From NCBI GenBank assembly GCA_963783575.1, contig CAWAOD010000004.1:258056-322055 (forward strand): a stretch of 64,000 nt of DNA, in the 5' to 3' direction. Both the position numbers and the translations under genes were made by a program. This stretch comes from an uncultured Spirochaetota bacterium. Its GTDB lineage: Bacteria; Spirochaetota; Brevinematia; Brevinematales; JAOACQ01. The notes under the pieces were generated by a model that saw nothing but the letters and a program-made list of their open reading frames with translations, had not been told where the DNA came from and did not search any database. Of this stretch, positions 26,184-64,000 are shown piece after piece. The stretch's first letter is position 1. Each line of letters starts with the position of its first letter.

Positions 26184-26184
26184 A

Positions 26185-32841: not shown

Positions 32842-34080
32842 ATGAAATCTTTACTAGATGATAATCAATTCGATTTGATTATAACTGGAATCGGTATTAC
32901 TTCAGCAATTGGCCAGGGAAAAGATGCTTTTACCTCCGCTTTACTGGAAGGCCGTCACTCTTTTAATATTATGCAGCGTCCGGGAAGGCAAAACGGGACC
33001 TCTTTTATAGGCGCAGAGATTTCTTCATTGTCCTATCCGGATGAGTTTTCAAAGCGTATTATACGGACAGGGTCTTTGACCGAACAAGCTGCAATGGTTA
33101 CACTTCATGAAGCCTGGAAAGAAGCAAAATTAGATAATGTCGAGCCCGAAAGGATCGGGCTTATTATCGGCGGATCTAACCTTCAACAGCGAAATTCAAT
33201 CCTAATTTTTGAACATTACAGAGACCAATCTTTTTTTATAAATCCAACCTATGGATTTTCCTTTATGGATAGTGACTTATGTGGATTATGTACTGAACAG
33301 TTTGGAATAAAAGGATTGGCTTATACTGTTGGAGGGGCTTCTGCAAGCGGTCAATTAGCTATTTTACAGGCTATTCAAGCCATTCAAGTGGATCAGGTAG
33401 ATATTTGCATCGCTTTAGGAGGACTGATGGACCTTTCATTTTGGGAATGCCAGGCTTTACGTTCTTTAGGAGCTATGGGAACCGATCATTATGCCAATGA
33501 ACCGGAAAAGGCATGCCGCCCCTTCGATAAAAACCGGGATGGGTTCATTTATGGCGAATCCTGTGGGGCAATCGTGATCGAAAAATCTAACGGGACTATA
33601 AATCGTCAATTAAAACCTTATGCGGCTATATCAGGTTGGGCAATAGGCATGGACGGGAACCGTAATCCGAATCCATCCTATGAAGGAGAACTCCGTGTAA
33701 TAAATAAGGCTCTGAAACAAGCTCGATTGAAGCCAAGTGAGATAGATTATATCAATCCACATGGCACTGGTTCAGTAATCGGAGATGAAATTGAACTGAA
33801 AGCTATCCGCGACAGCCAGTTATCCCATGCTTATATCAATGCAACCAAATCCATAACAGGTCATGGATTGAGCGCTGCAGGAACTGTGGAAATTATAGCC
33901 ACTTTACTGCAAATGAAATCTTCACAGCTCCATCCTACAAGAAATTTAGAGGACCCAATTGATTCAAACTATAATTGGGTGCGAAATCAACCCGTTTCTC
34001 ATATCATTAAAAATGCATTGAGTCTGAGTATGGGATTTGGTGGAATCAATACCGCAATATGTTTAAACAATGTAGTTTAA
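32842..34080 (+). CDS. pksF: stand-alone decarboxylating ketosynthase of a beta-branching cassette (PksF-like)
   Basis: GGASASG (active-site Cys replaced by Ser), NPHGTGS, KSITGHG and GFGGIN motifs; ATG at 32842 with AGGAG RBS. Confidence 0.88.
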   Translation: MKSLLDDNQFDLIITGIGITSAIGQGKDAFTSALLEGRHSFNIMQRPGRQNGTSFIGAEISSLSYPDEFSKRIIRTGSLTEQAAMVTLHEAWKEAKLDNVEPERIGLIIGGSNLQQRNSILIFEHYRDQSFFINPTYGFSFMDSDLCGLCTEQFGIKGLAYTVGGASASGQLAILQAIQAIQVDQVDICIALGGLMDLSFWECQALRSLGAMGTDHYANEPEKACRPFDKNRDGFIYGESCGAIVIEKSNGTINRQLKPYAAISGWAIGMDGNRNPNPSYEGELRVINKALKQARLKPSEIDYINPHGTGSVIGDEIELKAIRDSQLSHAYINATKSITGHGLSAAGTVEIIATLLQMKSSQLHPTRNLEDPIDSNYNWVRNQPVSHIIKNALSLSMGFGGINTAICLNNVV

Positions 34081-34154
34081 TAAAATATTATTAAAGAAAT
34101 GTGGATAAAGTTATGGTTTCTGCCGGCATACAATAATTGACCTTGCATCATAAA

Positions 34155-34931
34155 TTAACTCTCCCAGGGATATTTTCCCTTTTCTACAAATTGAAATATT
34201 TTATTGATAATTTCTTTATCTGAAAAAATCTCACGGTTGGCCGATACGGCCAATGTCTTTGATTTGAATATCATATCATTCAAATCACTCATATAATGTT
34301 TATAACGTAAAATTCCGGCTTTTGGCAGATTCTTAAGGCGTAGTATATGCTGTCTCAGTAAATCTTCACTCTTGTCAAGATAAGCGTCAACGAGTCCCCA
34401 TGAATAAGCTTGTTGTACTGAAACAGGTTTAGTCATTACTGTTAAATAATGGGCTTTTTGGAACCCAACTCTTCGAATTAAGAATGGTAAAACCATAGCC
34501 GGAAATAATCCGAATAATAATTCAGATAAACTGAATTGTGCAGTCTCATCGGCAAGAACAATATCGCTGGCGGCAACAAAACCTACACCTCCCGCATTAG
34601 CTTTCCCACGAACGTGAGATATAGTTATGTATGGCCCTGTAGTTAATTTCAACCACAAATTGTATAATTTCTCCGGATCATCCGCGCCCTGTTTTCCACT
34701 TTTTAATTGTGTATGTATACCTTGAAAGTCGGCACCATAACAAAACACTTCGGGCAAACCTTCAAATATAACGACATTGACTTTTTCATCACAAAGTGTA
34801 AGAGTTTTATTACACTCTTCAATCAATAAATCATTAATCGTGTTATTCGCTTCCGGGCGATTAAATTGTATAAAGCAGACTGTTTCCTGAAATCTAACAT
34901 TTATTGTTTGCCAATTCATATAATCCATCAT
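34155..34931 (-). CDS. pksH: enoyl-CoA hydratase-like dehydratase of a beta-branching cassette (PksH/ECH1-like)
   Basis: GLPEVFCYGADF, ANAGGVGFVAASD and SELLFGLFPA motifs; C-terminal PWE. Confidence 0.85.
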   Translation of the reverse strand: MMDYMNWQTINVRFQETVCFIQFNRPEANNTINDLLIEECNKTLTLCDEKVNVVIFEGLPEVFCYGADFQGIHTQLKSGKQGADDPEKLYNLWLKLTTGPYITISHVRGKANAGGVGFVAASDIVLADETAQFSLSELLFGLFPAMVLPFLIRRVGFQKAHYLTVMTKPVSVQQAYSWGLVDAYLDKSEDLLRQHILRLKNLPKAGILRYKHYMSDLNDMIFKSKTLAVSANREIFSDKEIINKIFQFVEKGKYPWES

Positions 34932-35191
34932 ATTATTTAGGTTTTTAATAATCTATGAAAATTATGCCTGAATGAAAATTCAAATTTTACAATCATTGAT
35001 TTTTAAATATAATGAAATAGGATACAATTATGCTAGCACAAAATATGAAAATTAAAAAATATTTTCCCCATATTGAATATGATAGAAATAGGTTGGAATG
35101 CCCTGATTGTGATTGTGAAAAAAAAATTGGGCGCCGTTAGTTATGACATGAAGCCCCAGAATTCAAGCTATATGAGGGCATATCCATCTAT

Positions 35192-36049
35192 CTAATATTG
35201 GTAAAAACCTTTTCCCGATTTCTTTCCCAATAGTCCTGCATCAACCATTTTTCTAAGTAATGGACAACATCTGAATTTTGAATCTTGATAACTCTCATAT
35301 AAAACATCCAATGATCGAACCACTGTATCTAATCCAATTAAATCGGCGGTTTCTAAAGGCCCCATTTTATGGCCATAACCTTGTTTAAAAATGGTATCGA
35401 CCTGGGCAGGGGTTGCGACTTGATCTTGAATCAGAAAAGCTGCTTCATTCATGAACAGGTGGGATAATCTGTTAGAAACAAAACCGGGATAATCATTTAT
35501 AATAACCGCGTTTTTACCAAGCGTCTTTAAAAATGCAGCTATTTCATTTTCTGTTTCTACTGAAGTGTGAAAACCTCTAATCACTTCTACCATTTTTTTT
35601 AATGGGACTGGATTCATAAAATGAGTGCCAATAACATTCGAAGGTTCAGGTAAATATGACGCAATTTTTGTTATTGAAATGCAACTGGAGTTAATAGCAA
35701 AAACAACTCCCTTCTTACAATATTTAACTAAATTTGCGTACTCCTTTTGTTTTTCGTCCCAGTCCTCAACTATATTTTCAATGATTAGATCTGCCTGATC
35801 AAAATCATTATAATCTGTTTGAAATTGAATTCTAGATATTACATCTTGAAGATTTACCCCATTCAATTCTTTCTTCATCATCTTTGCCATTTTAAAATCT
35901 TGTTCAATTCTCTTTTTTGCCAAATCTAAAGAATCATGATTTAAATCTTTCAGGATGACTTGATAACCGTAACAAGCTATATCAAGTGCCGTATCACTTC
36001 CCATTACACCCGCACCTACAATAGATACAGCTTTAAATGCCATGTTCAC
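35192..36049 (-). CDS. 3-hydroxyacyl-CoA dehydrogenase-like protein (FkbK/ZmaG type, glyceryl-ACP oxidation)
   Basis: GAGVMG, NSSCISIT, HFMNP and MGPLETADLIGLDT motifs; cluster context with fkbH. Confidence 0.8.
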   Translation of the reverse strand: MNMAFKAVSIVGAGVMGSDTALDIACYGYQVILKDLNHDSLDLAKKRIEQDFKMAKMMKKELNGVNLQDVISRIQFQTDYNDFDQADLIIENIVEDWDEKQKEYANLVKYCKKGVVFAINSSCISITKIASYLPEPSNVIGTHFMNPVPLKKMVEVIRGFHTSVETENEIAAFLKTLGKNAVIINDYPGFVSNRLSHLFMNEAAFLIQDQVATPAQVDTIFKQGYGHKMGPLETADLIGLDTVVRSLDVLYESYQDSKFRCCPLLRKMVDAGLLGKKSGKGFYQY

Positions 36050-36144
36050 CTCTATAATTTCCTTTCTTATTAATATTAATTATTACTTATTCTAAATTCA
36101 TAGGTTAATTTTAAATCAAACATGGAATAGTCATCTAATTTTAA

Positions 36145-36993
36145 TCAGGATTCCATCTTTATTTTTCTGAGTAATCCTGTTAGGACATTTCCAGGGCCAA
36201 CCTCTTCAATTTCAGCAACGCCTTTATTTATTATATAACGTATTGATTCAACCCATTGTACGGAACTAATAATTTGCTTATAAAGATTCTCTTTAATGGT
36301 TTTCTTTTCATATGGCTGAGCATTAACATTAGCGATTACTTTGATTTGAGGTTCTGCAAATTCAAATTGATTGATAAAAGACTTGAACTTGTCCCCGGCT
36401 TCCTGCATATAGCGGGAGTGGAATGCGCCGCTAACATTCAATGGAATATACATCATAGCGCCCGATTTCTCAAATATTGGCTGCGCGGAGGTAATATCTT
36501 GTTTTAAGCCTGAAATCACTATTTGCGATGGGGAATTGAAATTGGCAATATCTATTGATGTGAGTGAATTATCTTTCAAAATCTTCGTAATCTGATCCTC
36601 TTTTAATCCGATAACAGCGGCCATAGCGCCGTTCTTTGCCTCAGACATCAATTGGCTTCTGTATTTTACTATCTTTAACGCAGTTTCAAAATCAAAGACA
36701 TTAGCGGCAAACAAAGCACTATATTCGCCAACACTATGTCCCGCAACATAATCGGGTTTTTTACCTGTATCCTTTATTTTCTTTAAATAGGTTAATACGC
36801 TGACAACAAATAACGCCGGTTGAGTATATTGAGTTTGACTTAATTGGTTTTTTGGATCATTCAAGCATAAATCTTTAATAGAATATTCCAGAATCTTATC
36901 CGCCTGAGAGGTTAAATCTTTGTAATCATCAAAAAGCGCTCCTCCCATTCCTTTGCTTTGTGAACCTTGCCCGGGAAAAATAAATGCCGTCAT
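36145..36993 (-). CDS. trans-acting malonyl acyltransferase (PksC/FabD type)
   Basis: FPGQGSQ, GHSVGE and GAFHS motifs. Confidence 0.92.
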   Translation of the reverse strand: MTAFIFPGQGSQSKGMGGALFDDYKDLTSQADKILEYSIKDLCLNDPKNQLSQTQYTQPALFVVSVLTYLKKIKDTGKKPDYVAGHSVGEYSALFAANVFDFETALKIVKYRSQLMSEAKNGAMAAVIGLKEDQITKILKDNSLTSIDIANFNSPSQIVISGLKQDITSAQPIFEKSGAMMYIPLNVSGAFHSRYMQEAGDKFKSFINQFEFAEPQIKVIANVNAQPYEKKTIKENLYKQIISSVQWVESIRYIINKGVAEIEEVGPGNVLTGLLRKIKMES

Positions 36994-37138
36994 TATTTTC
37001 TCCTATGATAAATATCATTAATTATTGTCAATTCATCAAAAAATTATATATAAAAAAATTATTTATGTCAATTTAATGAATTGCAATTGTCCCACAAATC
37101 GAGACAGGATATAAGTTCTGTCATATTATAACGACTAA

Positions 37139-38405
37139 TTATATCCATTCATACTCTCGATGGAATTCCTTAATTTCATTTAAATATAAACGCTTTGTTC
37201 CTGATTGATTCTTCATCGTTTGTGAAAGGAAATTCCAGTCCAGTTTTACATTCTTTGTCCCAAATTTAACCGCATTGCTTCCAAATAGTAATTGCTGGTA
37301 TTCATCCATATTTAATTTATACCTGCAGCTTAAATTCTCTTCAAAATTAAAACTCTTAACAATTTGTTGCGATGCATCGCTTGCCAAACCGCTAAAAAAC
37401 TCGGAACAGCATCCCGAACCATAAGAGAAACAACCCAGTCGTTTTGGCGAAATAAAATCTCCATTTGCTATTGTACTGAACAGTGATAATGCGGTTGTGC
37501 CTCCCATAATATTTCCAACCCTCTGGCAATATGTTAAGCCAGGCATTACCCTTTTTGTAAAGTCCGCTTCGATTTCTTCTGTATCTGATTTATATATTTT
37601 TCGCATCATATTACGGTGGGCGCCTTTTATCATCCCTCCGAATGGCGTATGAAAAACCAGGTATTGAAAAGTATCCTTATAATCAATACCTTCGACTCTT
37701 TTTTGATATTCTGCAAATGCATTTTCGCAGCAATCAAGGTAAGATAATAACGACAAGATCTGCATCGCCCGCTTCACTATCTGGAATAGGCCTGCATGTA
37801 TCCATAACTTCATAACCATAGTAACCGTTCGCACCGATATCAGCCTGAAATACTTTTGGGTTTTCACTTACCAGCATGGCAACGGCTCCCGCTCCGCTGC
37901 TTGGTTCGGCAAAGGACCATTCTGCCGCCGAGATTTTGCTTCCTTTTTCCACCATAAAACGGGCAATATCGGTTGCGATTACCAAAGCCTTTGCTCCGGG
38001 AGATGCCTGAGACAAAACAAAACTTATTGCCATTTGTAAACCTGCAACTCCGGAATAACAAGCGTTCTTTAACTCGAATAGACGGCAATTCCTGTTTAAA
38101 CCCAGATAGTGATGAAAATAGGTGCTCATGGATTTACCAAAATCAAAAGAAGACTCCGTGCTGGTGATAACTAATTCAATCCTATCCTTCTCCTGCTGAT
38201 TCAATCTATCGACTACCGGTTTTGCCGCATTTACCCCAAAAGTAATGGGATCTTCATAAGGCAGGGCGACTGTTTTTTCTTTCATCAAAAGATTCGTAAA
38301 ACGCTGTGAATCAAGCTTACGGTATATAGCCAATTCATTTACATCTAAAAAAGCGCTTCCTGAAAAAGCGTTCATTGCTTCAATTCCAATGGCTTTCATT
38401 ATCAT
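37139..38405 (-). pseudogene. pksG: HMG-ACP synthase (PksG-like), split by a +1 frameshift near 37756
   Basis: KNACYSG in the upstream ORF, FHTPFGGMIKGAHR and SYGSGCCSEF in the downstream ORF; conserved GDADLSLLSYLDCCE spans both frames. Confidence 0.88.
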
Positions 38406-38517
38406 TCTCCCTCAAACAATACAGAATAATCCGGCAATTCAATTTATTCAATTACAGACCGGGTTAAAAAATATCCGTTGTTATAATCATATATTATTAT
38501 ATTTGGGTATCACATGA

Positions 38518-38766
38518 TTATTTTGATATTGTTTTGTTATAAAATATTGTCACTAAATCATTGATATTTTTTGCGCCGAATAATTCAACTCTTGGGATTT
38601 CCAGCTTTAATGTCTCCATCATCATTGTTAGAATCTCAGCTCTATCAACGGAATTGGCCCCTAATTCTCTTAAGCTATCCGTTATTAAAAAATTATGCTG
38701 TTCCAATTCCGGAACAACTGTTTTTGTATGTATGACAATTTGTTTAAATATCTCATCTTTTGTCAT
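38518..38766 (-). CDS. acpK: donor acyl carrier protein of a beta-branching cassette (AcpK-like)
   Basis: LGANSVDRAEI motif; adjacent to HMG-ACP synthase. Confidence 0.88.
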   Translation of the reverse strand: MTKDEIFKQIVIHTKTVVPELEQHNFLITDSLRELGANSVDRAEILTMMMETLKLEIPRVELFGAKNINDLVTIFYNKTISK

Positions 38767-38963
38767 TACAGCCTTCCTTATAAATTATTATTTTTCCCTT
38801 TACACTTTCCTAATTCGTTCAGTTGATCAATAAGCTCCTGGATATTTTAAAAACTTCGTTCAATAGAATTATATGATTTGAAAATTAATATTAAATAAAT
38901 ACCGGGATTGGTTTTGTGACAGGGAAACTGCTATTTATCCATGGAATTTTTATAAGAGGTGTT

Positions 38964-39782
38964 CTATAATGCAGTTAATCCGCCGTCTGCTGCAACCGAT
39001 TGCCCTGTAATATAAGATGCTGAATCCGAACATAACCAGAGCGCTACATTGGCAATTTCTTCCGCTGTTGCCATTCGGCCTATCGGCGTACTAGCCTCAA
39101 GGAAGTTTTTAATGTTTGGAAAATATTTTATAATCGGCTCTGTCATTCCTGATACAGTCAAAGAAGGACAGACCGCGTTTACTCGAATATTCTTTTTTAT
39201 AAATTCCGTGCCCGCGACTTTAGTTAGTCCGACAATACCGTGCTTACTTGCTATATAACTTGCCTGGCCTATTCCAACCAGCCCGGCGATTGAAGAGGTA
39301 TTGACAATAGCCCCTTTCCCTGCCTTTATCATTTCAGGGATTTGATATTTCATACAAAGCCAAATACCTTTAAGATTTATATTGATAACTTTATCCCATT
39401 GCTCTTCGGTGGATTCCAGCAAATATGAATTGTTTTGCAATGACTCCGGATTATCTTCCGTAAAATTTACGGCAGATCCCCCTTCAATACCGGCATTATT
39501 ATGCGCATAATCAAGCCTTCCATACTTCTTTATCGTGAAATCAACTAATTTTTTAACATTTTTCTCGATGGAAACATCCGTTTTAAAAAAACAAGCTTCT
39601 TTTCCGGAATTTTTGATTAATGAAACGGTTTCTTTGGCTCCGTCATTATTTATATCGGCAATAACAACTTTAGCATCATAATTCGAAAAGAGCACTGCCG
39701 ATGCCCTGCCAATGCCTGATGCCCCCCCCGTTACAATTGCCACTTTATTCTTAAATTCATTGTACATTTTTCGGTTCTCCAT
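38964..39782 (-). CDS. short-chain dehydrogenase/reductase
   Basis: TGGASGIG, NNAG, YIASK and DGG motifs. Confidence 0.92.
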   Translation of the reverse strand: MENRKMYNEFKNKVAIVTGGASGIGRASAVLFSNYDAKVVIADINNDGAKETVSLIKNSGKEACFFKTDVSIEKNVKKLVDFTIKKYGRLDYAHNNAGIEGGSAVNFTEDNPESLQNNSYLLESTEEQWDKVININLKGIWLCMKYQIPEMIKAGKGAIVNTSSIAGLVGIGQASYIASKHGIVGLTKVAGTEFIKKNIRVNAVCPSLTVSGMTEPIIKYFPNIKNFLEASTPIGRMATAEEIANVALWLCSDSASYITGQSVAADGGLTAL

Positions 39783-39956
39783 TGTAATCTAAAAGTTTAT
39801 TCCATTGGATATAAACAGAACTGAAAATCATTCCGGTATTAATCAGGTTCATGTTATCACAAAGATAATAATCATTACTGTTATCCCGAATTTTATTCTA
39901 AAAGAAAATTGAATTTTTGTCAAGCTGGCTGGCTGAGCTAGACCAAATTCCCAATA

Positions 39957-41665
39957 CCCAAACTGAGCGATTTTTTAATAAATACCAAAAACAGGTTTAT
40001 AAAAGCCAAAATTTATAAAAATTTGGATATATTTTTTTGTCACCGGTTAATTTGCCGAATTTATGCGTTTGAAAGCACTAAAATCATCAATCTCTGAGAT
40101 ATTTTCAATTTTTGGCGCAATACCCCCTTATTAATCCATGAAAACAGAGCGCATCTTTAAATCGGGGTAACCGTTCCGCATTTCTCCCACAAATCTAACA
40201 ATTTAAACCTGTCAACTACTTCTTCCCTGAATTTTAAAATAGCCCGCCCGCCTGTTTTAACAATCTTTCCCGCAATATCAATAAATATTCGCCTGACCGT
40301 ATCCGGATAACTTTCCACTGGTATTTCCGGTATATCCATATCCGCCTGATAAGCCGACAGCAGATTATACGCTATTATCGATAAAAAATAATATACACCG
40401 TTTGATACAAAACTCTTAAACGGCAGTGTTTCATCCACGAATTCTTTTATTCCACGGTTCACCAGTTCATCTTTTGCCCTCAGATGATAGAGCCTCACTA
40501 TTTCCTCTGCCGTCATATATTTCACAAGCCCCTTTTCTTTCAATACTTCCGCTTCTTCAAGATTTGTATAAATAATATTTTCAGGCCTGTCGAACGCTAA
40601 TCTGAAAACCCCGTCTTCACATTCATATTTGGTATAAATGGCACGGTATCCCTTTTCCCAGCTATCCCGTCTGTCCCGAAAGTCCAGGTATTCAATTACA
40701 TCTCCTTTTTTCTCAAACCTTCTCCATTCTTCCGGCAATCGCTTCATCAAATCGAGTTTGATTGAATCCAGTATTCTCCCGCCGCATATAAAGAACAGTT
40801 TCAGGTCTTCCAGCTTCTTAAAATACTTTTGGTCAAAAAACCCGCTATCAGACACAACGATAATCGGCACCTCTTTGTCATAGCATTTCCGGATTTCCTT
40901 CACTGTTTCTTCCAGCATTGTAAACAGATCGTCACCGTGATTCGGGGATTCGCTTCCTTCGTGGAACGCCAGGTTCACGATAAAACCATTCCAATACATA
41001 TGCAGCGGATGATACCCGTTAACCTTTTTGTGGGTATAAGTCACGCCGTTTCGCTTTTTAGCGTCATCATTATTCAGTACCATCGTATCAAGTCCGAGAA
41101 TAATAACTTTCGGGTTCTTTATCTTGAGACGCCAGACAAAAAGCTTAATTAGAATCTTTTGAAGCTCTTTAAACATTGTCTTTTTTACCACTGAAAAAAA
41201 TCTCTTTATCACATGGGATGAGCACATATTGTCTTTGCTGCATTCAATGGCCTTTCTGTGCCCGATATCATTTGCCAATTCATCAAACCGGGTCATGGTA
41301 AATTTGCTTCCATCTATGAAAAACAGCATCAATTGAGAAATAATTTTTTCTATATCTTTACCTTTGCGGCTCTTGCGAATTCCCTGAAATACTTCGCTGA
41401 TCAGGGGAATAACTTTAATATTCTTGAGATATCTCAGGACAAACGTAAGCCCGCCGCGGCTGGTAAGACAATCTTTCGTTATGCCGATTTTTTGAATCTC
41501 ATTTCCCTGAATTTTGCGATTTTTATTTTTTTCAGTCATAATTTACCTGCTTTTGCACCCAATGGGTGTTATTCCGGGGTAAGGATGGCTGTAACCATTT
41601 CCTTACCCCATTTTATTTTAGCATGGTTTTATTTTTATGGATAGTTAAGAATCGCTCAGTTTAGG
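39957..41665 (-). mobile_element. IS1380-family insertion sequence with a 5-bp target duplication
   Basis: IRs CCCAAACTGAGCGATT (39957-39972) and CCTAAACTGAGCGATT (reverse complement of 41650-41665); CAATA direct repeats at 39952-39956 and 41666-41670. Confidence 0.9.
40157..41539 (-). CDS. IS1380-family transposase
   Basis: LTSRGGL, LDT, GYHPL, DSGF and YHLRAKDE...KE motifs; RRIFIDIAGKIVKTGGR. Confidence 0.9.
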   Translation of the reverse strand: MTEKNKNRKIQGNEIQKIGITKDCLTSRGGLTFVLRYLKNIKVIPLISEVFQGIRKSRKGKDIEKIISQLMLFFIDGSKFTMTRFDELANDIGHRKAIECSKDNMCSSHVIKRFFSVVKKTMFKELQKILIKLFVWRLKIKNPKVIILGLDTMVLNNDDAKKRNGVTYTHKKVNGYHPLHMYWNGFIVNLAFHEGSESPNHGDDLFTMLEETVKEIRKCYDKEVPIIVVSDSGFFDQKYFKKLEDLKLFFICGGRILDSIKLDLMKRLPEEWRRFEKKGDVIEYLDFRDRRDSWEKGYRAIYTKYECEDGVFRLAFDRPENIIYTNLEEAEVLKEKGLVKYMTAEEIVRLYHLRAKDELVNRGIKEFVDETLPFKSFVSNGVYYFLSIIAYNLLSAYQADMDIPEIPVESYPDTVRRIFIDIAGKIVKTGGRAILKFREEVVDRFKLLDLWEKCGTVTPI

Positions 41666-41688: not shown

Positions 41689-42981
41689 TTAGACCGGCCC
41701 TTCTTTTATTTCTTTTAAGTTTATCGCCCATAAGTTAAGAATAAACATTAATAATGCAATCCCAATAAAAAGTAAACTGATCCATACATATTGAACTAAA
41801 AATCCGCCGGCAAGATAGCCAACAGGCATAATAAAAGCGCCAATGGATCGCTGAAGGCCCCAAAATCTTCCCCTATACTCATCTGAAGTATAATTTTGAA
41901 ATATTACATTGGTAGAAATCATAAAAAAGGTTACTCCAATACTAAGGAACATACCCCCAATTGCAAAAAACACGGTCATGCTCCAGTTATTAATGTGCGG
42001 CTGTATCTGCGGTAATAATATCGGTGCTCCAATTATAAAACAAATGCTGTAGACCAGCAATCCCCAAAATATGGAATTTCTAAGCTTTAAACGGCTTATA
42101 AAAATGGGCGCTATTATTGAACCGAAAATAAGCCCGATCCAGCCGCCGCTTTGAGTTATGGCTAATTGAAAAGGAGTCGCTTTAAGAATTACGTTAAACA
42201 GATAGGGGCTAAAAACCATTATGACAGGATAAACTATTAATAAAAACATGGCGTTCAGCAATGTCAGATTAAAAATCAGGCTGTTTTTTTTAACATAGAG
42301 AAAACCTTCATATAATTCATTAATTACTTTATTGAACTCATGGATAAAGGATATGTTTTTTATATAATTGATCGGCTTATTATAGGGCAGATTGATACAG
42401 CTTTCCAAAAATCCGGAAATTAAATATGAAACTGCGTTTATCAAAAATATGACAAAAACCCCAATTAAATTATAAAGAATACCGCTGATTAATAGCCCGG
42501 CCGCGGCACAAAAGCTGAATACGAACTGATCTAATGATGTAGCTTCCGTTAATTGATCCTTATCTACAATATTTGGTATGATGGCGCTTGATGCTGGTGA
42601 AAATATTGCTCCGCATGTTCCTAAAAATACTGCGCTTACATATATCATCCAGATTTGAAGCATATGGTTATATAGTAGAACAGCTGATAATATAACAACT
42701 ATTCCGCGTATTGTATCCATCCAAACCATTATATATTTTCTGTTTAATCGGTCTGCTATGAGACCGCCAAACAGAGAAACAATTGCAACCACTGATGTAT
42801 CAATTACCAAAAATGATGCCATTTGTATTCCCGATTTTGTGACTTCGAGTATATACCAGCTTAAAGCAAATGTATATATTTGATCTCCCAGTTGAGATAT
42901 GATTTTACCGGAAAAAAGAAGACTGTAATTCCGGATGAATAATACACTTTTTTGCTTTGTTTTTACTGATTCCGGCTTCAT
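41689..42981 (-). CDS. MFS efflux transporter (DHA3/Mef-like), candidate product exporter
   Basis: GKIISQLGDQIY, GLIADRLNRK and EYRGRFWG motifs; 12-TM pattern. Confidence 0.88.
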   Translation of the reverse strand: MKPESVKTKQKSVLFIRNYSLLFSGKIISQLGDQIYTFALSWYILEVTKSGIQMASFLVIDTSVVAIVSLFGGLIADRLNRKYIMVWMDTIRGIVVILSAVLLYNHMLQIWMIYVSAVFLGTCGAIFSPASSAIIPNIVDKDQLTEATSLDQFVFSFCAAAGLLISGILYNLIGVFVIFLINAVSYLISGFLESCINLPYNKPINYIKNISFIHEFNKVINELYEGFLYVKKNSLIFNLTLLNAMFLLIVYPVIMVFSPYLFNVILKATPFQLAITQSGGWIGLIFGSIIAPIFISRLKLRNSIFWGLLVYSICFIIGAPILLPQIQPHINNWSMTVFFAIGGMFLSIGVTFFMISTNVIFQNYTSDEYRGRFWGLQRSIGAFIMPVGYLAGGFLVQYVWISLLFIGIALLMFILNLWAINLKEIKEGPV

Positions 42982-46734: not shown

Positions 46735-46983
46735 TTAATTTTTTTGCATCTTATTAACATATGAGACAATTTTATTTACGGAATTGAAATTGTTGATATC
46801 CAGATCCTTATCCGGCACGGATATATTGTATTGCGATTCAATAAAATTTATTATTTTCATCGCAAACATTGAATTTACGAAGCCCATTTTAAAAAAGTTA
46901 TCGTCGTTGCCGAATACTGCCTCATCGTCAAAAACATCCAGATTACTTTCAATCAGATTTCTTATTTCATCTACCATACTCAT
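46735..46983 (-). CDS. acyl carrier protein (FkbJ/ZmaD type)
   Basis: GFVNSMFAMK motif. Confidence 0.88.
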   Translation of the reverse strand: MSMVDEIRNLIESNLDVFDDEAVFGNDDNFFKMGFVNSMFAMKIINFIESQYNISVPDKDLDINNFNSVNKIVSYVNKMQKN

Positions 46984-55737: not shown

Positions 55738-58700
55738 ATAATGAATCCCATGCTATGCTATATCCCTGGCAATAGAAATCTGCCAGAGCATAAAGATTAT
55801 CCATGTACTGATCCGGCTTGGAATGAAGGGATTTGCCTTCATCAAGCAAATCCTGTATGTATTTCTTAATCGCTTTTTGCCCCTTGAATCCGCGGGGTGT
55901 TTTTCCCCTGAAAACATTGGGCGGTTTGTCTTCGCCGTCAATCTGCCGTAAAAGATAAAGCGCGTCCTCAATTTCATTAACTACAATCGCGCAGCGATAT
56001 TCAAAATGATGCCGGCCTGTCAATAACGTGCGGCTAACCCGCGGGAGACTGTATTCGGACACATCCCTGTTATTTAAAAATTTAACCATATCACTTATTT
56101 TTAATTTCAGGGCGTCCTCCGTTTTAGCGGAAAGCGTTAATATATAATATGGTGCCTTTTCAAAAAAAGCATCGCCTTTTCTTTCATAACTCTCTAAAAC
56201 CATATGCGCGTTCGTACCGCTCATCCCAAAAGCACTCACCGCTCCGGTCAATGACCCACCCTCCCCGGCAAGCCATAACTTTCTGCTTTTATTTACGAAA
56301 AACGGGCTGTTTTTCCAATTGATATAGTCATTTTCCGATTCAATGTTAAGGCTTGCCGGGATGGTCCTATGCCGGAATGCCAGAATTAGGCTTATAAGAT
56401 TCACGATGCCTGAAGCCGCGAAAGTGTGACCGAGGTGGGTCTTTATCGATACAATCGCGCAATACTGCTCTTTGGAGGTATATGCCTTATAGGCATCATT
56501 CAGCGCATTGATCTCAACCGGGTCTCCCAATGCCGTTCCCGTACCATGGGTAAAAACGCATCCGATTTCCTCGGGATTTATTTTGTACCGGTCATAAACC
56601 ATTTTTAACAGGTTGGTTTGTGAAAGCCCATTTGGGGCTGTAATGCCGTTTGTTTTACCGTCATAATTGATTCCGCTTCCCTTAATAACAGCATAAATCG
56701 GGTCTCCGTCAGCCTCCGCTTTTGATAATGTCTTTAGAACTACAGCGGCCACGGCTTCCCCTACGACCATACCGTTAGCGCGCTTATCAAAGGCATAACA
56801 ACGGCCATCCGGCGAAAGCATTCCAGACTGAATCATACCGAGATATATTGTCGGCGTCAGCAATATATTGACTCCCGCCGCTATTGCCGTATCGCACTCC
56901 CCATTCCGCAAGCTCATGCAGGCCTGATGCGCCGCTACCAATCCCGAGGAGCATGCCGTGTTGATCGCCATGTTCGGGCCATGAAGGTCAAGAAAATAGG
57001 CAAGCCGGGCAGCTAAAATTCCCTCATGATTGGAAGTAACGCTGGTATTTCCCCCCGTTATATACTGATAATCCCCGGGTTCTACGCCAACAAACATGCC
57101 GATTTTATACTTATTGATTTGCGCCGGTCCATAACCTGCATCCTCCAGGGCTTTCCAGGATTCCTGCAATAAAAGGCGCTGTCTTGGATCCATGATCTCG
57201 GCTTCACGGGGGGAAATTTGAAAAAACAGCGGGTCAAACTCGTCCACTCTTGAAAGATACCCGCATTTCCAGATATCTTTACCGAAAGCCCAATCGGGGC
57301 TTTCGGTAAATTTACGCCAATCGAACCGTTCGGGCGGAATTTCCCGGACGGCCTCTTTTCCCTCTTCCAATATGTTCCATAATTCATCAACATTGCCAGC
57401 CTGGGGAAACCTTCCGCTCATTCCGATAATCGCTATCGGTTCGTTCTGGCTTTGAACGATGCCTCCCCGCATCATACGGGAAATATTGAATGCCGTCTTT
57501 TTTACTGAAGTGTCTTCAATAGCGGGAGCATCCTTTATTATTATATCTTTTCCATAATATTCCTGAATGAGTGTTTTATGTTCGGCCAGGAAATACTTTG
57601 TCAATTCCTCAATGGTCGGGTATGTGAAAAATAATGCCGGTGTAAAATCGATATCATATAAACTGGATATGTTGTCTGCGAACCTCCCCAGACTGATGGA
57701 ATCAAACCCAAAATCCTTGAAATTGATATCAAGATCGATTTTTTCTTTTGGATATTGAAACAGCTTGCTAATAATCTCCTTAATATTCCATATGATGCAT
57801 TCCTCAAGGCTCAACCCCTTCATTTCAGGCCGCCGCCCTTTGCCCGATGTTTTCACCTGTTTTTTTATACTGGAATCTTCGTTTAATAGCAATTGATCAT
57901 TGGACTCTCTGACCTTTAATAATTTCAGGAAACGGTTCAAGCGGGAGGGGTCCCCTTCCAGTACTATTATTTGATCGGCCTTTAAGGCCAGCCCACGGTT
58001 CAGGGCCTGAATTCCCGTTTCGCTTCTCATGCTGACCATGCCCGATCTTTCCGTAATCCTCTTTTCGGTCCATTCATCCACTCCCATTCCGCCCTCTTTC
58101 CAAAGCGGCCAATTGATTGAAATCGTTTGACCCGAGCGTTCTTTGGCAAGCACCTTTTCATTTCTATATTTTGCGTAAACATCCATAAAATTGTTTGCAG
58201 CCGCGTAATCCGCCTGGCCGGGGTTACCAAAAACAGACGCAATGGATGAAAAAACAATGAAAAAATCAAGCGGCTGGTCTTTTGCAGCAAGATCGATATT
58301 TACAAGCCCCGCGACTTTCGGCGCCATGACTTTATGAACTTCCTCACCGTTTTTTTTAACAATAAAATTATCATGCAAAACACCGGCCGAGTGGATAATA
58401 CCGGTGAGATTCCCAAAATCATTCCCGATGCTCTTTATGAGATCATTAATCTCTTCTGCATCTACGACATCAACTTGTTTATAGATAATTTCAGCATCAA
58501 ATTTTTTTAATCCATTCAATTGATTCTGCTTTTCTTCAGTCAATTCCGATCTGCCCGTTAATACTACAACCGCTTTTTTTACTTTCTGCGCTATTTCCTT
58601 CGCAAATATGAACCCAAGGCCGCCGGCGCCGCCTGTGATCAGATAGACCCCCCCGTCCTTCCATGGAATACCTGCCCCGGTTTGAGAGAGATCCTCCTTC

Positions 58701-61700
58701 CGTAAACCCAATAAATATCTCTTATTATCCTGATAGCGGATATGAAATTCATCGGGGCTAACAACGGTGTCTTTTATTTTTTGAAAAGCCTCTTTAGTAT
58801 CCTCTTCCGGTCCAATTTCTATTAGCTGAGCGACAAGTTTTTGATTTTCCTGGACGGCAGTTTTTAACAGGCCCGCTAGAGCTGAAAAAAGAATCTTTTC
58901 ACCCCGGTCAAACACCACCACCTGGATTAAAAACTTATCTTTCGGATTTCCTTCGAAAAACTTTTTTATATCCTCGAATAACCTGATCGCATAATCTTCA
59001 AAGCGTTTTGATATATCATCAGATTCCGAATGAAATATGATGTATTCATCTTTTAACAAGTATGGAATATCCTTAATGAAGAGATTATCCGGCTCGCAGA
59101 AATAGATCTTATGATTTTTGTATTCGGTGCTTGTCGATTGATTGGTAACTTCCTCCTCTGTCCAATAAGGTTTAATAATAAATTTATCAAGAGGAAATGA
59201 AGTTTCTGATGATGAAATCAAATCCTTTACTATTCCGGTTTTGATCCCAATCATTGAAATGCATATTTTACCGCTTTCATCAATAATATCAATATCCATA
59301 TCCCGTATTTCTCCGGCTTTAATATTTCCGGTGCCATAACGGATATAAGCCCACATTTCCTCGCCGCAACGGCCAAAAACGTTGAACTTTTTCATGGAAA
59401 CGGGAAAATTGATATCCTTTTTCTCTGACTCTATGGACAAAGCGGCGGATGCCTGTAATGCCGCTTCCAGCAGGACCGGCTGCAGTGTAAACTTATCAGA
59501 ATTGGAAGATGAGGAATGCAAAACCAGTTTTGCGAACACCTTGTCTTTTCCTGTAAATATCTCTGCTATCCCCTTATTTTTCTCATTATATTCAATTCCT
59601 TTATCTTTGAAAATTTTATAAAAATCCTCTCCCGAAATCGTTTTTTGCCTGCAATCATCCCTCAAAGCACCTATGTTCATGACCGGTAAATTGTTATTGG
59701 ATAAAAACCCGATATTACCACTATTGAAAGTCTCCTCATTGCCTGAATCCTCTTTTTTACCGTAGATCTCATAATTGACTTCGCCGTTATTTTCGGGAAC
59801 AAGCCTGATGTGAATCTGTTTTGGCTGTTTGTTTAATATGCATGGCTTATTCCAGATAATATTTTTTATGCAGATCCTTGTTTCGTATTCTTCCTGTATT
59901 ATTTCAAAGGCTTCTTTTATAGCGTCATAGGCCATTTCAAGGCATATAAACCCCGGTATGATTTTTTGATCTTTAATAGCATTTTTTAACAGATAAGATT
60001 CATTTCCCTTAATAATAGCCGCGTATCTCTGTTCCGAAATAATAGATGTATTTTCATGCAATAAAGGATGCAAATTGGGTCTATCGTCCTGAAAATCCGA
60101 CTCTATAAATTTCATTTCCGATTCTGGGATCCAGTACCTTTCCCTCGCGAATGGATACGTCGGAAGGCTTACCCGCTTCGGCTTCTCCCCTCCATACAGC
60201 CTGTCCCAGTCAAACTCCAGCCCTTTCACCCACAAATCCAGCAGCTTGCCGTATTTCCCCTTCCCTATCCAGCTATCAACCGCCTTCTGAAGCTCCTCGT
60301 CGGCAGTGAAAACGCTCAAGGCCTCCTTATTCCTCTTCGCCTGTCCCTCGTACAGGTCCTCTATATCCTGTTTTCCATCAATGTATTCCTTCAATTTTCT
60401 TTTCAATTCCTCCGTCGAGCTCACTATCAAGCCCAGCCTCTCCTCCATCGCTTCACGCCCTACCTGCAGCGTGTAGGATATGTTTTCCAGATCCATGTCA
60501 GTGTACTCATTCTCTTCTATGTCCCTCAATAAATTTACCGCCTGCTCCCTCGCCTGCTCTTTGCTCTTAGCCGACAATACGATGATTGACGGATTATTTA
60601 TCCCTTTTTTGTCCTTATTATCTTCTTTTGCCTCGTATTCCTCTATGATCACATGCGCGTTCGCCCCGCCAGCTCCGAACGACGATATCCCCGCTATCCT
60701 CGGGTATTCCTCCGTCTTTCCGTCAATCTCTATCACCGGCCTTTTCCACTCAGTCAGTTCATGCTGGACCGTAAACGGAGTCTTGCTGAAATCTATATTC
60801 GGGTTCAGTACCCCGGAATGAAGCGAAGGCACCAGCTTCCTGTTTTTCATCTGCAGCAATACCTTCGTTACTCCCGAGATCCCCGCCGCGCTCTCGCAAT
60901 GCCCTATATTGCTCTTTACTGACCCTATCGCGCAGAACTGCCTGTCCTGCGTATACTCCGCGAACGCCCTCGTTAGCCCGCTGATCTCTATCGGGTCTCC
61001 CAGCGATGTTCCTGTCCCATGCGCCTCGATGTAACTGATTGTCCTTGGATTGATTCCCGCCTTCTTAAACGCCTTTCCTATCACCTCGGATTGCGCCTTC
61101 GGATTGGGCACCGTATAGCCGTTCGTCTTTCCGCCATGATTCAGCTCCGTCGCCTTTATTATACCGTATATGTGATCCCTGTCCTCTATTGCTTTCGGCA
61201 GCGGCTTCAGCAATACAGCTCCCACTCCCTCACCAGGCACGTACCCGTCTCCGCCCTCCCCGAAGCTTTCGCATCTCCCCTTGCTCGACACGAACTTTCC
61301 CTGCGCAAGCATGAGATACTTGTTCGGATGGATCGATACGTTCACCCCTCCCGCTATCGCCAACCCGCATTCCCCGTTCCTTATCCCGCTGCAGGCCATG
61401 TGCATCGCCGTTAGCGACGATGAGCACATCGTGTCCAGCGCAACGCTGGGTCCATGAAAATTAAAGAAATACGATGCCATGTTCGCTATGGAAGACGGGT
61501 TACCCGGTATCGCCACCGGTCTTCCCTTCGCCGTCAGTTGCGCTCCGTACAGCTGGTACTCCTCGTACATCACCCCTACATATACCCCGACTTCCCCGCC
61601 TATCCCGCCGCCGTTGTCACCCTCCTGCGCTTCACGCCGGTACCCCGCGTCCTCCAGCGTTTCATACACGCATTCCAGAAACAGCCGCTCCTGCGGGTCC

Positions 61701-62347
61701 ATATATGCCGCCTGTACCGGCGGGATGTTGAAAAACAAAGGGTCGAACTTGTCCACATCGTCCAGGAACCCGCCCCACTTCGCGTAGGTCTTGCCCGGCT
61801 TGTTTTTATCTTCATCGAAATACCTGCTGTGGTCCCACCTCTCCTTCGGTACCTCCGTTATGCAATCCACTCCCTGCCTCAAATTATCCCAGAACTCCTT
61901 CAGGTTTTTCGCTTTGGGATACCGCCCAGCAAGCCCTATGATCGCTATATCCAAGTCCTCCTTTTTCGCCGCGGTTTCATGTTTTATCCTACGCCGCGGG
62001 GAATATTTTCGCGTATTAATTGATATTCTTTCATCCTTGATGTTTCCCAGGGCCGCCAGCGGCGCCTTTTCCGCCATGCCCATTATTCTCAGCAGCGCGT
62101 CATAATGGTTTTCTATGAAATATCCCGCCAATTCATTAATATTCTTATATTCAAAAAACAGCGTCTTCGATAACGGCCCGAAATCCTTCTCCAGATTATT
62201 TGTCATCTGTATGACCATGATCGAGTCTATCCCGTATTTCTCAAACGGGTCACGCGGCTCTATTCTATTCGTCGGGATTTTCGTGACCGCGGACAGGTAT
62301 TTTTTGAAATAGCTCTCCGCTTTCTCCAGAACTTCTTCTCGGCTCAC
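55625..62347 (-). CDS. trans-AT PKS, N-terminal part: ACP-KS-DH0-KR-ACP-KS; frameshift near 55675 joins it to the 48220-55737 ORF
   Basis: GIDSI; DTMCSS/HGTGT/KSNIGH; GGAGGLG; GFDSI; TACSS/HGTGT/KTHLGH; no AT after either KS; LPTYPFAQEHY(W) split by an extra T. Confidence 0.92.
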   Translation of the reverse strand: MSREEVLEKAESYFKKYLSAVTKIPTNRIEPRDPFEKYGIDSIMVIQMTNNLEKDFGPLSKTLFFEYKNINELAGYFIENHYDALLRIMGMAEKAPLAALGNIKDERISINTRKYSPRRRIKHETAAKKEDLDIAIIGLAGRYPKAKNLKEFWDNLRQGVDCITEVPKERWDHSRYFDEDKNKPGKTYAKWGGFLDDVDKFDPLFFNIPPVQAAYMDPQERLFLECVYETLEDAGYRREAQEGDNGGGIGGEVGVYVGVMYEEYQLYGAQLTAKGRPVAIPGNPSSIANMASYFFNFHGPSVALDTMCSSSLTAMHMACSGIRNGECGLAIAGGVNVSIHPNKYLMLAQGKFVSSKGRCESFGEGGDGYVPGEGVGAVLLKPLPKAIEDRDHIYGIIKATELNHGGKTNGYTVPNPKAQSEVIGKAFKKAGINPRTISYIEAHGTGTSLGDPIEISGLTRAFAEYTQDRQFCAIGSVKSNIGHCESAAGISGVTKVLLQMKNRKLVPSLHSGVLNPNIDFSKTPFTVQHELTEWKRPVIEIDGKTEEYPRIAGISSFGAGGANAHVIIEEYEAKEDNKDKKGINNPSIIVLSAKSKEQAREQAVNLLRDIEENEYTDMDLENISYTLQVGREAMEERLGLIVSSTEELKRKLKEYIDGKQDIEDLYEGQAKRNKEALSVFTADEELQKAVDSWIGKGKYGKLLDLWVKGLEFDWDRLYGGEKPKRVSLPTYPFARERYWIPESEMKFIESDFQDDRPNLHPLLHENTSIISEQRYAAIIKGNESYLLKNAIKDQKIIPGFICLEMAYDAIKEAFEIIQEEYETRICIKNIIWNKPCILNKQPKQIHIRLVPENNGEVNYEIYGKKEDSGNEETFNSGNIGFLSNNNLPVMNIGALRDDCRQKTISGEDFYKIFKDKGIEYNEKNKGIAEIFTGKDKVFAKLVLHSSSSNSDKFTLQPVLLEAALQASAALSIESEKKDINFPVSMKKFNVFGRCGEEMWAYIRYGTGNIKAGEIRDMDIDIIDESGKICISMIGIKTGIVKDLISSSETSFPLDKFIIKPYWTEEEVTNQSTSTEYKNHKIYFCEPDNLFIKDIPYLLKDEYIIFHSESDDISKRFEDYAIRLFEDIKKFFEGNPKDKFLIQVVVFDRGEKILFSALAGLLKTAVQENQKLVAQLIEIGPEEDTKEAFQKIKDTVVSPDEFHIRYQDNKRYLLGLRKEDLSQTGAGIPWKDGGVYLITGGAGGLGFIFAKEIAQKVKKAVVVLTGRSELTEEKQNQLNGLKKFDAEIIYKQVDVVDAEEINDLIKSIGNDFGNLTGIIHSAGVLHDNFIVKKNGEEVHKVMAPKVAGLVNIDLAAKDQPLDFFIVFSSIASVFGNPGQADYAAANNFMDVYAKYRNEKVLAKERSGQTISINWPLWKEGGMGVDEWTEKRITERSGMVSMRSETGIQALNRGLALKADQIIVLEGDPSRLNRFLKLLKVRESNDQLLLNEDSSIKKQVKTSGKGRRPEMKGLSLEECIIWNIKEIISKLFQYPKEKIDLDINFKDFGFDSISLGRFADNISSLYDIDFTPALFFTYPTIEELTKYFLAEHKTLIQEYYGKDIIIKDAPAIEDTSVKKTAFNISRMMRGGIVQSQNEPIAIIGMSGRFPQAGNVDELWNILEEGKEAVREIPPERFDWRKFTESPDWAFGKDIWKCGYLSRVDEFDPLFFQISPREAEIMDPRQRLLLQESWKALEDAGYGPAQINKYKIGMFVGVEPGDYQYITGGNTSVTSNHEGILAARLAYFLDLHGPNMAINTACSSGLVAAHQACMSLRNGECDTAIAAGVNILLTPTIYLGMIQSGMLSPDGRCYAFDKRANGMVVGEAVAAVVLKTLSKAEADGDPIYAVIKGSGINYDGKTNGITAPNGLSQTNLLKMVYDRYKINPEEIGCVFTHGTGTALGDPVEINALNDAYKAYTSKEQYCAIVSIKTHLGHTFAASGIVNLISLILAFRHRTIPASLNIESENDYINWKNSPFFVNKSRKLWLAGEGGSLTGAVSAFGMSGTNAHMVLESYERKGDAFFEKAPYYILTLSAKTEDALKLKISDMVKFLNNRDVSEYSLPRVSRTLLTGRHHFEYRCAIVVNEIEDALYLLRQIDGEDKPPNVFRGKTPRGFKGQKAIKKYIQDLLDEGKSLHSKPDQYMDNLYALADFYCQGYSIAWDSLFGETGPARCALPTYPFAQEHYLGVRQRGTKLYTGDRE

Positions 62348-62529
62348 CTTAGTACATCTATTTGTCCAGTTCGATTCAATACTTCTTTGCGGTTATTTAT
62401 TTTATTTAACGAAGGTATTATTTCCCCGTCAGATTGACTACTAACCGTTTTCAATAATTCCGCGGCTTCCCTAATATTGATTTTTTTCTCTTTTATCTGA
62501 TTGTATATACTATTTAATTTATTATTCAT
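62344..62529 (-). CDS. probable N-terminal docking segment of the same PKS (frameshifted near 62350)
   Basis: MNNKLNSIYNQIKEKKINIREAAELLK helical docking-like sequence; GGAGG RBS upstream; overlaps the GTG start of the next ORF. Confidence 0.6.
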   Translation of the reverse strand: MNNKLNSIYNQIKEKKINIREAAELLKTVSSQSDGEIIPSLNKINNRKEVLNRTGQIDVLR

Positions 62530-62648
62530 TTTTTAATATTACCTCCGGTAATAATTATTCTAATTATTTCCTGTCATTAATATTTGTTCAATCTTCTCCA
62601 GAGATATTTCGCCATTTAAATATTTTTCTGGAAAGATTTATATAAAAT

Positions 62649-64000
62649 TCAATCGTTATTGCCTTTATTTTTAAAATTATCTTCCGATTGTTCATGCCTG
62701 ATAATATTCGATCTAATAATCTCCCTCAATTTATCCTCATAGCCGTTTATTACCATGACCTGATCTCTATCCCCCGCCAGGCTTTTATAAAACGCCTTTA
62801 TGCCTTCGCTCGCCGGCATCGCCGTCATACCCGAGTTTTGCCTCATAAATTTCTCTTCCCCGGGACTTACCTTCATCCCTCCCTCAGCCCACAACGGCCA
62901 GTTTATGGAAACGGTCTTTCCCTTTCTTTCCTTTTTACCAGCCAGCATGTTCCTGCGCTCCGCGTATCGGTCCATAAACCCGTTCGCAATCGCGTAATCC
63001 GCCTGCCCGACATTCCCCATCACTCCCGCCATTGACGAGAACAGCGCGAAGAAGTCCAATTCCATATCTTTCGCCGCATCATCGATATTCACCAGCCCCC
63101 TTACCTTCGGGCCCAGCACCGATCCTATCTCATCCTCCGTCTTCTTCATGATCAGGCTGTCTTCGATCACTCCGGCCGAATGGATTATCCCGTTTATACC
63201 ACCGTATTCCCCAGCTATCCCCTTTATCATTCCCTCCACGGCTTCTTTATCCGTTACATCCGCCTCTCTATAGCTGACACGGCCTCCCGCTTCACTCAGC
63301 GCCTTTATCGCCTCCATCTTTTCCTTATTTAATTTCGATCTCCCCGTCAGGATCAGCGCCGGGTTCTTCACCTTTCCGCATATCTCCCTCGCGAATATCA
63401 GGCCAAGACCGCCCAGGCCCCCGGTTACCAGGTACACACCGTTATCCTTCCAGGGAAGTTGTTCTGCCGCGTCTTCCGGTATCTTTACCTCTTCCCATTG
63501 CCTTACCTTCCTCTTCCCCCCTTCATACCTGATTTCTTTATCATAATACCTCTTTTTATTACTCTTAAGCTTTTCTGCCAATCCTCCGGCGCTTTCATCC
63601 GCTTCAATCCCGATCACCTGTCCCGATATCTTCGGGTTCTCAAGCTTTCCCGTCTTCAACGCGCCCGATATCCCCTATATGATCCTTCCGTCTTCATCAT
63701 TATTCACTACAAGCTGTATTAATACCCTTCCCTTCGGCTTGCTAACGATCACTTCCCTTAGAATTTTAAATACCTCCATTCTGGATCTTCTCTCATACCT
63801 CTTTTCTATCCCCTCGCCCAGTCCCTCCAGAACATAACATTCCGATCCCCAACCTCTCTCCTCCTTTCTCTCTCTTCCAGGCTCGCACAGCATCACTATA
63901 TGCCTGGAGATATCCGCCTCTCTGTCCCCTGCCTCTATTTCCCTCTCCTCCCACCCCGGCTGAAACCTTAATGTGCCAATCACCGGGGGTTCCTCTCCGG
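62649..64000 (-). CDS. C-terminal KR domain of the upstream trans-AT PKS (partial; in-frame TAG at 63675-63677)
   Basis: TGGLGGLG, HSAGVIED, GQADYAIAN and SINWPLW motifs; ORFs 63675-63983 and 62649-63659 are in the same frame. Confidence 0.85.

Follow-up and report, generated by a model that had tools for sequence, protein, structure and literature searches.

The window, as we call the whole 64,000-nucleotide stretch of DNA analysed here (G000:C4:258,056-322,055, the final 64 kb of contig C4 of a Brevinematia genome), carries a trans-acyltransferase (trans-AT) polyketide synthase (PKS) cluster that is truncated at the contig end. Within its assembly line, the module of the second ketosynthase (KS2) has the order KS-DH0-KR-AT-ACP, with an acyltransferase (AT) of the zwittermicin ZmaA type lodged between the ketoreductase (KR) and the acyl carrier protein (ACP), behind a dehydratase (DH) predicted to be inactive. 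By a slight balance of probability, we favor an interpretation in which the window holds the downstream end of a trans-AT line, the AT of the KS2 module likely loads hydroxymalonyl, and the chain, now bearing a vicinal diol, is then likely released by reduction. The architecture is seen directly and its KR-AT unit is replicated in two other proteins; the substrate, the product, and the integrity of the line are inferred.

The embedded AT, together with its linker, spans residues 822-1237 of the last open reading frame (ORF), and its best match in the PDB is ZmaA-AT, the zwittermicin AT specific for hydroxymalonyl-ACP (4qbu, E 4.4e-104; next match 3.6e-49). ATs of the embedded clade are 43-48% identical to ZmaA-AT versus 26% to ZmaF. 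The AT carries GYSFG and a hydrophobic FCV at the RXR site, matching the signature of GYSFG and hydrophobic RXR-site residues that PMC4207774, in the part available, ties to ACP-borne extenders. The normal cis-AT order, KS-AT-(DH)-KR-ACP, is not the order of the KS2 module, whose KR and downstream KS fall in trans-AT clades. The ATs of the three KR-AT proteins (the window, L037, and P0002) form one clade with a support of 1.0, and each is preceded by a trans-AT KR of the GDFG.CDY type, not by a ZmaA-type KR. L037 (G043:C49) runs C-A-T-KS-KR-AT-ACP-KS-DH in a single unbroken ORF, and its AT is 55% identical to that of the window; P0002 ends in KS-KR-AT followed by a docking-like tail, and its AT is 59% identical.

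Among proteins and loci picked by AT similarity, which comprise best matches only and are not a census, the KR-AT order occurred in 1 of 120 proteins and in 1 of 12 mapped loci (12 of 80 genome loci were mapped for gene context); it occurred in none of 624 AT domains in 266 other proteins and in none of the 20 loci of a further set. A metagenome scan returned 52 loci, all at 30% identity or less, and a stand-alone FkbH was present in all three genomes with near cis-AT relatives that we checked. The literature searched, which was covered in part and excluded supplements, yielded no description of a KR-AT-ACP module in a trans-AT context, and a likewise partial search found no work joining any three of the four elements trans-AT PKS, FkbH, acyl-CoA dehydrogenase, and reductive release.

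Read along the minus strand, the PKS comprises a cut KR with a docking region, then ACP-KS1-DH-KR-ACP-KS2, and then DH-KR-AT-ACP-KS3-ACP-R, where R is a thioester reductase. FkbH, ACP, ACAD, AH, ER, MFS, IS1380, SDR, AcpK, HMGS, AT, 3-HCDH, and ECH follow, and a PksF-type KS converges on them. In ascending window coordinates these features are as follows.

32767..34080, plus strand: stand-alone decarboxylating KS of the PksF type (Cys replaced by Ser, GGASASG; PRK07103 629.5 bits, cut-off 445), likely start near 32,842
34155..34931, minus strand: enoyl-CoA hydratase (ECH), ECH1/PksH type (PDB PksH, E 2.8e-104)
35192..36049, minus strand: 3-hydroxyacyl dehydrogenase (3-HCDH), ZmaG-like (Pfam; 52% to the Zma 3-HCDH)
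36145..36993, minus strand: discrete malonyl AT, FabD type (GHSVG, AFHS; TIGR00128 371.8 bits, cut-off 260.9)
37139..38405, minus strand: HMG-CoA synthase (HMGS) homologue with one frame break near 37,770; against an intact homologue, one frame aligns over residues 1-218 and the other over 215-419
38518..38766, minus strand: AcpK-type donor ACP (PRK07117 103.5 bits, cut-off 79)
38964..39782, minus strand: stand-alone short-chain dehydrogenase/reductase (SDR), no role assigned
39955..41665, minus strand: insertion sequence (IS) element IS1380, between the MFS and SDR genes, breaking no ORF (13 genome copies at 99.7-100%)
41689..42981, minus strand: major facilitator superfamily (MFS) transporter, DHA3-like, predicted to act likely in export
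43098..44540, minus strand: PfaD-type trans enoylreductase (ER; TIGR02814 628 bits, cut-off 449), with a frame break ~20 codons before the expected C-terminus
44562..45527, minus strand: proofreading acyl hydrolase (AH), PksD type (PDB PksD, E 2.3e-89; next 4.4e-34)
45574..46722, minus strand: acyl-ACP dehydrogenase (ACAD), ZmaE-like (ZmaE 54%, 412 bits, versus ZmaI 38%, 262 bits)
46735..46983, minus strand: extender-unit ACP of 82 aa, ZmaD-like, with a GFVNS motif (ZmaD 45%, 69 bits, versus ZmaH 39%, 48 bits)
46994..48037, minus strand: FkbH glyceryl transferase/phosphatase (TIGR01686 264 bits, cut-off 146.65)
48478..49323, minus strand: terminal R domain, MxaA type (GxxGxxG and YxxxK intact; PDB MxaA, E 4e-59; Pfam NAD_binding_4)
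49453..49677, minus strand: terminal ACP (GMDSIAGVEF) with Phe at the Trp-flag position
50278..51531, minus strand: KS3, a non-elongating or beta-branch-module KS
51691..51882, minus strand: module ACP immediately after the embedded AT (Pfam PP-binding)
52027..53274, minus strand: embedded ZmaA-type AT with KS-AT linker, between KR and ACP (GYSFG, FCV, YAIH; PDB 4qbu)
53497..54039, minus strand: KR belonging to the GDFG.CDY clade of trans-AT KRs, lacking the LDD aspartate and with an A-type motif
54781..55611, minus strand: DH, catalytic His motif lost, predicted inactive
55625..62529, minus strand: docking region-ACP-KS1-DH0-KR (B-type motif)-ACP-KS2, with frame breaks near 62,350 and 55,690
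62560..64000, minus strand: upstream PKS protein, truncated where the contig stops and represented by its C-terminal KR and docking region, with an in-frame stop near 63,675 and a break near 62,640

The stretch at 55625..62529 and the ORF at 48,220-55,737 are likely one protein, and no more of the PKS is visible in the window than three KS domains and an additional KR. An earlier sequence-only reading had proposed a trans-AT PKS, a proposal borne out by the discrete AT, which exceeds the TIGR00128 cut-off, and by the KS domains, whose top PDB matches are AT-less trans-AT KS structures. It had also described the modules as AT-less: the KS1 and KS3 modules and all scanned modules on contigs C9, C10, and C11 indeed have no integrated AT, and the exception is the KS2 module, whose in-cis AT is the most distinctive feature of the line. 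The PksD-type AH, the PfaD-type ER (recognised by TIGR02814 despite its frame break near the C-terminus), the FkbH/ACP/ACAD/3-HCDH set, the SDR, the MFS transporter, and the terminal R domain that it listed are all present within 32,767-64,000. The gene at 44,562 was considered as a special AT and rejected as PksD-like by its PDB match. A 12/12 sigma-70 consensus lies directly upstream of the discrete AT gene (37,071-37,043), in a promoter scan that as a whole was not above chance (83 versus 72 +/- 8), and an Rfam search returned no match.

The composition of the cassette agrees with the predicted hydroxymalonyl extender, which the sequence-only reading had likewise named. It resembles the hydroxymalonyl proteins ZmaD/E/G more than the aminomalonyl proteins ZmaH/I; of the paired Zma counterparts, the window ACP is nearer to ZmaD (over ZmaH), the ACAD to ZmaE (over ZmaI), and the AT to ZmaA (over ZmaF); and no adenylation enzyme or O-methyltransferase was found in the window. 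The database record names zmaJ only, and the other Zma names are those we presume from the gene order. An aminomalonyl extender was rejected, there being no adenylation enzyme and the cassette being closer to ZmaD/E/G than to ZmaH/I. A glyceryl or lactyl starter role for FkbH was set aside as the main explanation because an ACAD, a 3-HCDH, and a ZmaD-like ACP accompany it. The cassette recurs around L037 (ACAD 74%, ACP 70%, FkbH 73%, and 3-HCDH 58% identical), where one ECH, HMGS, a decarboxylating KS (KS0), AcpK, AH-AT, and ER are also found, the whole spanning 46-74% identity; no FlaA match was found in G043.

By analogy with known pathways, FkbH, the 3-HCDH, and the ACAD would convert 1,3-bisphosphoglycerate to hydroxymalonyl on the ZmaD-like ACP, and the embedded AT would hand this unit to the adjoining module ACP; the discrete AT would supply malonyl to the remaining modules, and the AH would remove stalled acyl groups from the ACPs. 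KS1-DH0-KR would leave a beta-hydroxyl, both window DH domains being without the catalytic His motif. KS2 would then extend with hydroxymalonyl and its KR would reduce the ketone, giving R-CH(OH)-CH2-CH(OH)-CH(OH)-CO-S-ACP. KS2 and KS3 group in the clade matched by PksL KSs, which we take to be that of KSs following hydroxyl-retaining KRs. KS3 most likely acts as a transfer KS without extension, and the R domain would free the chain as a primary alcohol or as an aldehyde that could cyclise to a lactol. The reductive release of the sequence-only reading is thus retained: a C-terminal, MxaA-like R domain that follows an ACP and keeps GxxGxxG and YxxxK likely acts as an MxaA-type releasing reductase. 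This scheme takes the frame breaks to be mostly assembly errors.

Several observations weigh against it. The lid motif of the embedded AT is YAIH, not the GAAH of ZmaA (YAVH and YAIH occur in the two relatives), the node uniting the embedded ATs with ZmaA has a support of 0.56, and most members of the large GYSFG group are uncharacterised. Gene context is available for only two KR-AT cases, the role of KS3 is unproven, as is the join to an upstream contig, reads span none of the breaks in HMGS, ER, and the inner PKS (55,690, 62,350, and 62,640), and decayed relics of FkbH and 3-HCDH in a sister cassette on C10 reveal that real decay occurs in this genome. We consider very unlikely an alternative in which the embedded AT loads methoxymalonyl, made with a methyltransferase from C10, or malonyl, and the FkbH cassette serves another line. 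The Tyr at the lid position recalls the MXW(X)5YASH that methoxymalonyl-ACP ATs carry in the part of PMC4207774 available, C10 holds two stand-alone methyltransferases, and C10 could replace C9 as the upstream half. No methyltransferase, however, is found in the window cassette or the matching G043 cassette; loading malonyl would repeat the task of the discrete AT, and CoA substrates are not accepted by ZmaA-AT according to the same part of PMC4207774; a C10-C4 pairing would leave C9-C11 without any accessory genes; and P0002 starts with the starter type seen on C9.

It is fairly unlikely, in our estimation, that KS3-ACP is instead an active beta-branching module, in which, after the same loading step, KS3 would extend the diol chain, HMGS add acetate, and the single ECH dehydrate with no decarboxylase acting, and the hydroxyl that stems from hydroxymalonyl, adjacent to the branch, could close a five-membered lactone (butenolide) before release by R. 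The module is a KS-ACP without a KR, the usual beta-branch layout; KS3 retains its Cys, both His, and its Lys; and the best PDB match of the terminal ACP is the mupirocin beta-branching didomain (E 2e-8). No other Trp-flag ACP was found in the C9 or C4 modules, the G043 cassette on C49 likewise contains a single ECH, and beta-branch ACPs of virginiamycin have Phe at the Trp-flag site in the part of PMC10006238 available. Yet the HGTGT of KS3 is degraded to HSLGL, Phe is the commonest residue at the Trp-flag site among ordinary ACPs here, the terminal ACP falls outside the Trp-ACP group in the tree, the last module of the sister line, on C11, is KS-ACP-R with a KS that is clearly non-elongating (QGTGT), C10 carries a Trp-ACP, and others, or an embedded ECH, may lie in the unassembled gap. 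The beta-branching cassette named by the sequence-only reading is present in part. The donor ACP, KS0, HMGS (with its one frame break), and ECH1 are all present; a PF00378 search of the assembly (89.85% complete, with the PKS gap unsequenced) found no ECH2 decarboxylase, the gene at 34155..34931 being the only ECH. In our view quite improbable is a combined scheme in which KR-AT-ACP is a portable plug-in by which an AT-less line installs an alpha-hydroxyl at one module without O2 and the carboxyl of a terminal, non-decarboxylated branch closes on that hydroxyl. The product would be an aldehyde or alcohol capped by a butenolide, and the literature searched yielded no such route.

A decaying relic, with real breaks in the HMGS, ER, and PKS genes and no product, is an explanation that we consider distinctly improbable. 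The cluster has six reading-frame breaks: in HMGS near 37,770, at the ER C-terminus near 43,100, in the PKS near 55,690, 62,350, and 62,640, and the stop at 63,675. These and the IS1380 lie within 31 kb of an IS-rich genome, KS3 is degenerate, two DHs are dead, C10 holds the FkbH/3-HCDH remnants, and copies of IS1182 show few private indels (2 in 57 kb), fewer than the orthologue-based rate gives. That rate, from 400 kb sampled of a same-family genome, is 0.11 per kb: in 146 kb of sequence, 14 of 142 orthologues together contain 16 frame changes, so that six breaks were observed versus 3.1 expected (P about 0.10), which is compatible with the assembly background. IS copies suggest a lower error rate, 0.035-0.23 per kb. 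Frame breaks are about as frequent in housekeeping genes, among them Fhs and a cytochrome oxidase subunit I with intact catalytic motifs, both split by frame changes; each break in the cluster shifts the frame by one base and is flanked on either side by sequence of high identity; and the IS1380 interrupts no ORF. Contigs publicly available for X1, a single run with a small share, agree at 100% with short unique stretches and at 97-99% with the 60-64 kb part, where they may represent collapsed repeated modules in the gap; one X1 contig (depth about 2) reads a different base inside the 63,675 stop, the only break that is bridged.

The remainder of the line lies elsewhere in the assembly. Genes for trans-AT PKSs occur at four contig ends, as beginnings on C9 and C10 and as endings on C11 and C4, both endings being KS-ACP-R, and an attempt to join the contigs by overlap failed, no overlap being found. 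The upstream half most likely begins on C9, and C9 to C4 is the simplest pairing because accessory genes are absent from C9, whereas an ER, an ACAD, and an AT are already present on C10. P0002, which shares the KR-AT unit, begins with the KS-plus-insert starter found on C9: L003:4,183-6,324 (C9) and P0002 residues 291-900 each hold a starter KS followed by an insert of ~500 residues like a degenerate AT, with 36% shared identity. A second, larger trans-AT/NRPS (nonribosomal peptide synthetase) line (G000:C10:1-56,000 and C11:1-36,908; L004-L010) also ends in KS0-ACP-R, KS0 denoting here a non-elongating KS; it contains a B12 radical SAM gene, a C-FkbH-ACP fusion, and, on C11, duplicated modules that are near-identical; the decayed FkbH/3-HCDH relics lie at C10:54,700-55,300. 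An NRPS/cis-AT PKS cluster at G000:C11:554,113-569,868 (L011) has a ThiF-family domain inside an NRPS module, and an Sfp-type transferase is located on C11.

The sequence places the cluster in the chromosome of a free-living spirochaete of the Brevinematia. The Spirochaetota host suspected by the sequence-only reading is confirmed by four FlaA genes in the genome and by the RodA of the window, whose nearest named relatives are Brevinematia entries (62-64%) and then Thermospira aquatica (56%). A chimeric or mis-binned Firmicutes or Proteobacteria fragment was rejected by the RodA relatives, by a tetranucleotide correlation of C4 with the genome of 0.993, and by near-identical copies of the window IS1182 and the cluster IS1380 on other contigs. 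Contigs C7, C17, and C1 are deviant in GC content and tetranucleotide use (0.425, 0.72, 0.89), and two of them, C7 and C17, probably do not belong to the bin. The IS1182 at window 3,743-5,227 has >30 genome copies at 99.3-100%. A probable exported protein of 279 aa at 31,703-32,542, with a weak DUF3108 match, has >30 paralogues in the genome, one of which also flanks the PKS start on C9. KS matches at E 1e-100 or better were found in 6 of 400 other Spirochaetota genomes, four candidates being scored per genome; one was 64% identical and the rest were 44-45%. Trans-AT KSs are rare in the phylum, 1 of the 400 other sampled genomes having comparably close trans-AT-type KSs.

A carbon monoxide dehydrogenase/acetyl-CoA synthase (CODH/ACS) operon (window 17,286-29,277: CooC, CooS, CooF, flavin reductase, AcsB, AcsD, AcsC, and AcsV) ends at 29,277, ~3.5 kb from the PKS cluster. 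CODH, ACS, the corrinoid protein subunits, and AcsV were all detected, and no Pfam or NCBIfam model matches the first ORF (343 aa). The operon and its distance were correctly described in the sequence-only reading; the Wood-Ljungdahl pathway was not upheld, since AcsE is not recognisable. The acs operon holds none, and the two PF00809 matches lie elsewhere and, judged by the length of their frames, are FolP and MetH, so that the pathway is incomplete as assembled. The anaerobic host it had proposed is weakened by a heme-copper cytochrome oxidase operon (G000:C11:115,500-121,000), whose subunit I lies in several frames with its His motifs kept; no bd oxidase was found in the genome. With AcsE not found and this oxidase present, the labels "anaerobe" and "Wood-Ljungdahl" are unproven. 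No connection between the acs operon and the PKS beyond proximity was found, and neither FkbH nor AcsB was found in any of 42 other genomes of the class.

Compared with known systems, the cluster shares with the zwittermicin A synthase (ZmaA-AT with ZmaD/E/G/N) its AT family and GYSFG motif, orthologues of its ACP, ACAD, and 3-HCDH, and FkbH. The ZmaA AT, however, stands in the KS-AT-KR-ACP order of a hybrid NRPS/PKS, whereas the AT here comes after a KR of trans-AT type, is the exception in a line of AT-less modules, and has YAIH, not GAAH. The AH, ECH1, KS0, donor ACP, discrete AT, and ER are like those of bacillaene-type PKSs (PksC/D/F/G/H, AcpK, and PksL), and the KSs match trans-AT KSs first; unlike in those systems, no PksI-type decarboxylase was found here, and the line has an embedded AT, an FkbH cassette, and an R domain in place of the thioesterase in which the bacillaene line ends. 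The R domain has that of myxalamid MxaA as its best structural-database match and keeps the catalytic motifs. The MxaA reductase sits after an NRPS module, whereas R here follows a PKS KS-ACP.

Trans-AT lines load malonyl nearly throughout, with few confirmed exceptions through discrete ATs, in the available parts of PMC6164871 and PMC7930024. The former, in that part, gives the discrete KirCII (kirromycin), OzmC (oxazolomycin), and ZmaF (zwittermicin) as the only confirmed non-malonyl loaders in such lines. These likewise bring a special extender into one module of an AT-less line but are discrete and act in trans (PMC6164871, same part), whereas the AT here is fused into the module after the KR. 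The predicted alpha-hydroxyl on the growing chain is shared with oocydin and palmerolide, for which a flavin monooxygenase is used or proposed in the available text of PMC8739492, which attributes alpha-hydroxylation in trans-AT lines to oxygenases; the route here would need no O2. As trans-AT clusters are already reported in anaerobes (PMC3250452 and PMC7930024, in the parts available), a trans-AT PKS in an anaerobe is not in itself new. The cluster belongs to the trans-AT PKSs, and its KS2 module likely operates in the manner of the zwittermicin hydroxymalonyl step without being a cis-AT module of the ZmaA type. The natural KR-AT-ACP fusion in three module contexts marks an AT insertion site in an AT-less module and makes module-specific extender choice testable, possibly to the benefit of engineering. 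If our interpretation is correct, alpha-hydroxy polyketides would be made by a route independent of oxygen, in a phylum with few close trans-AT-type KSs.

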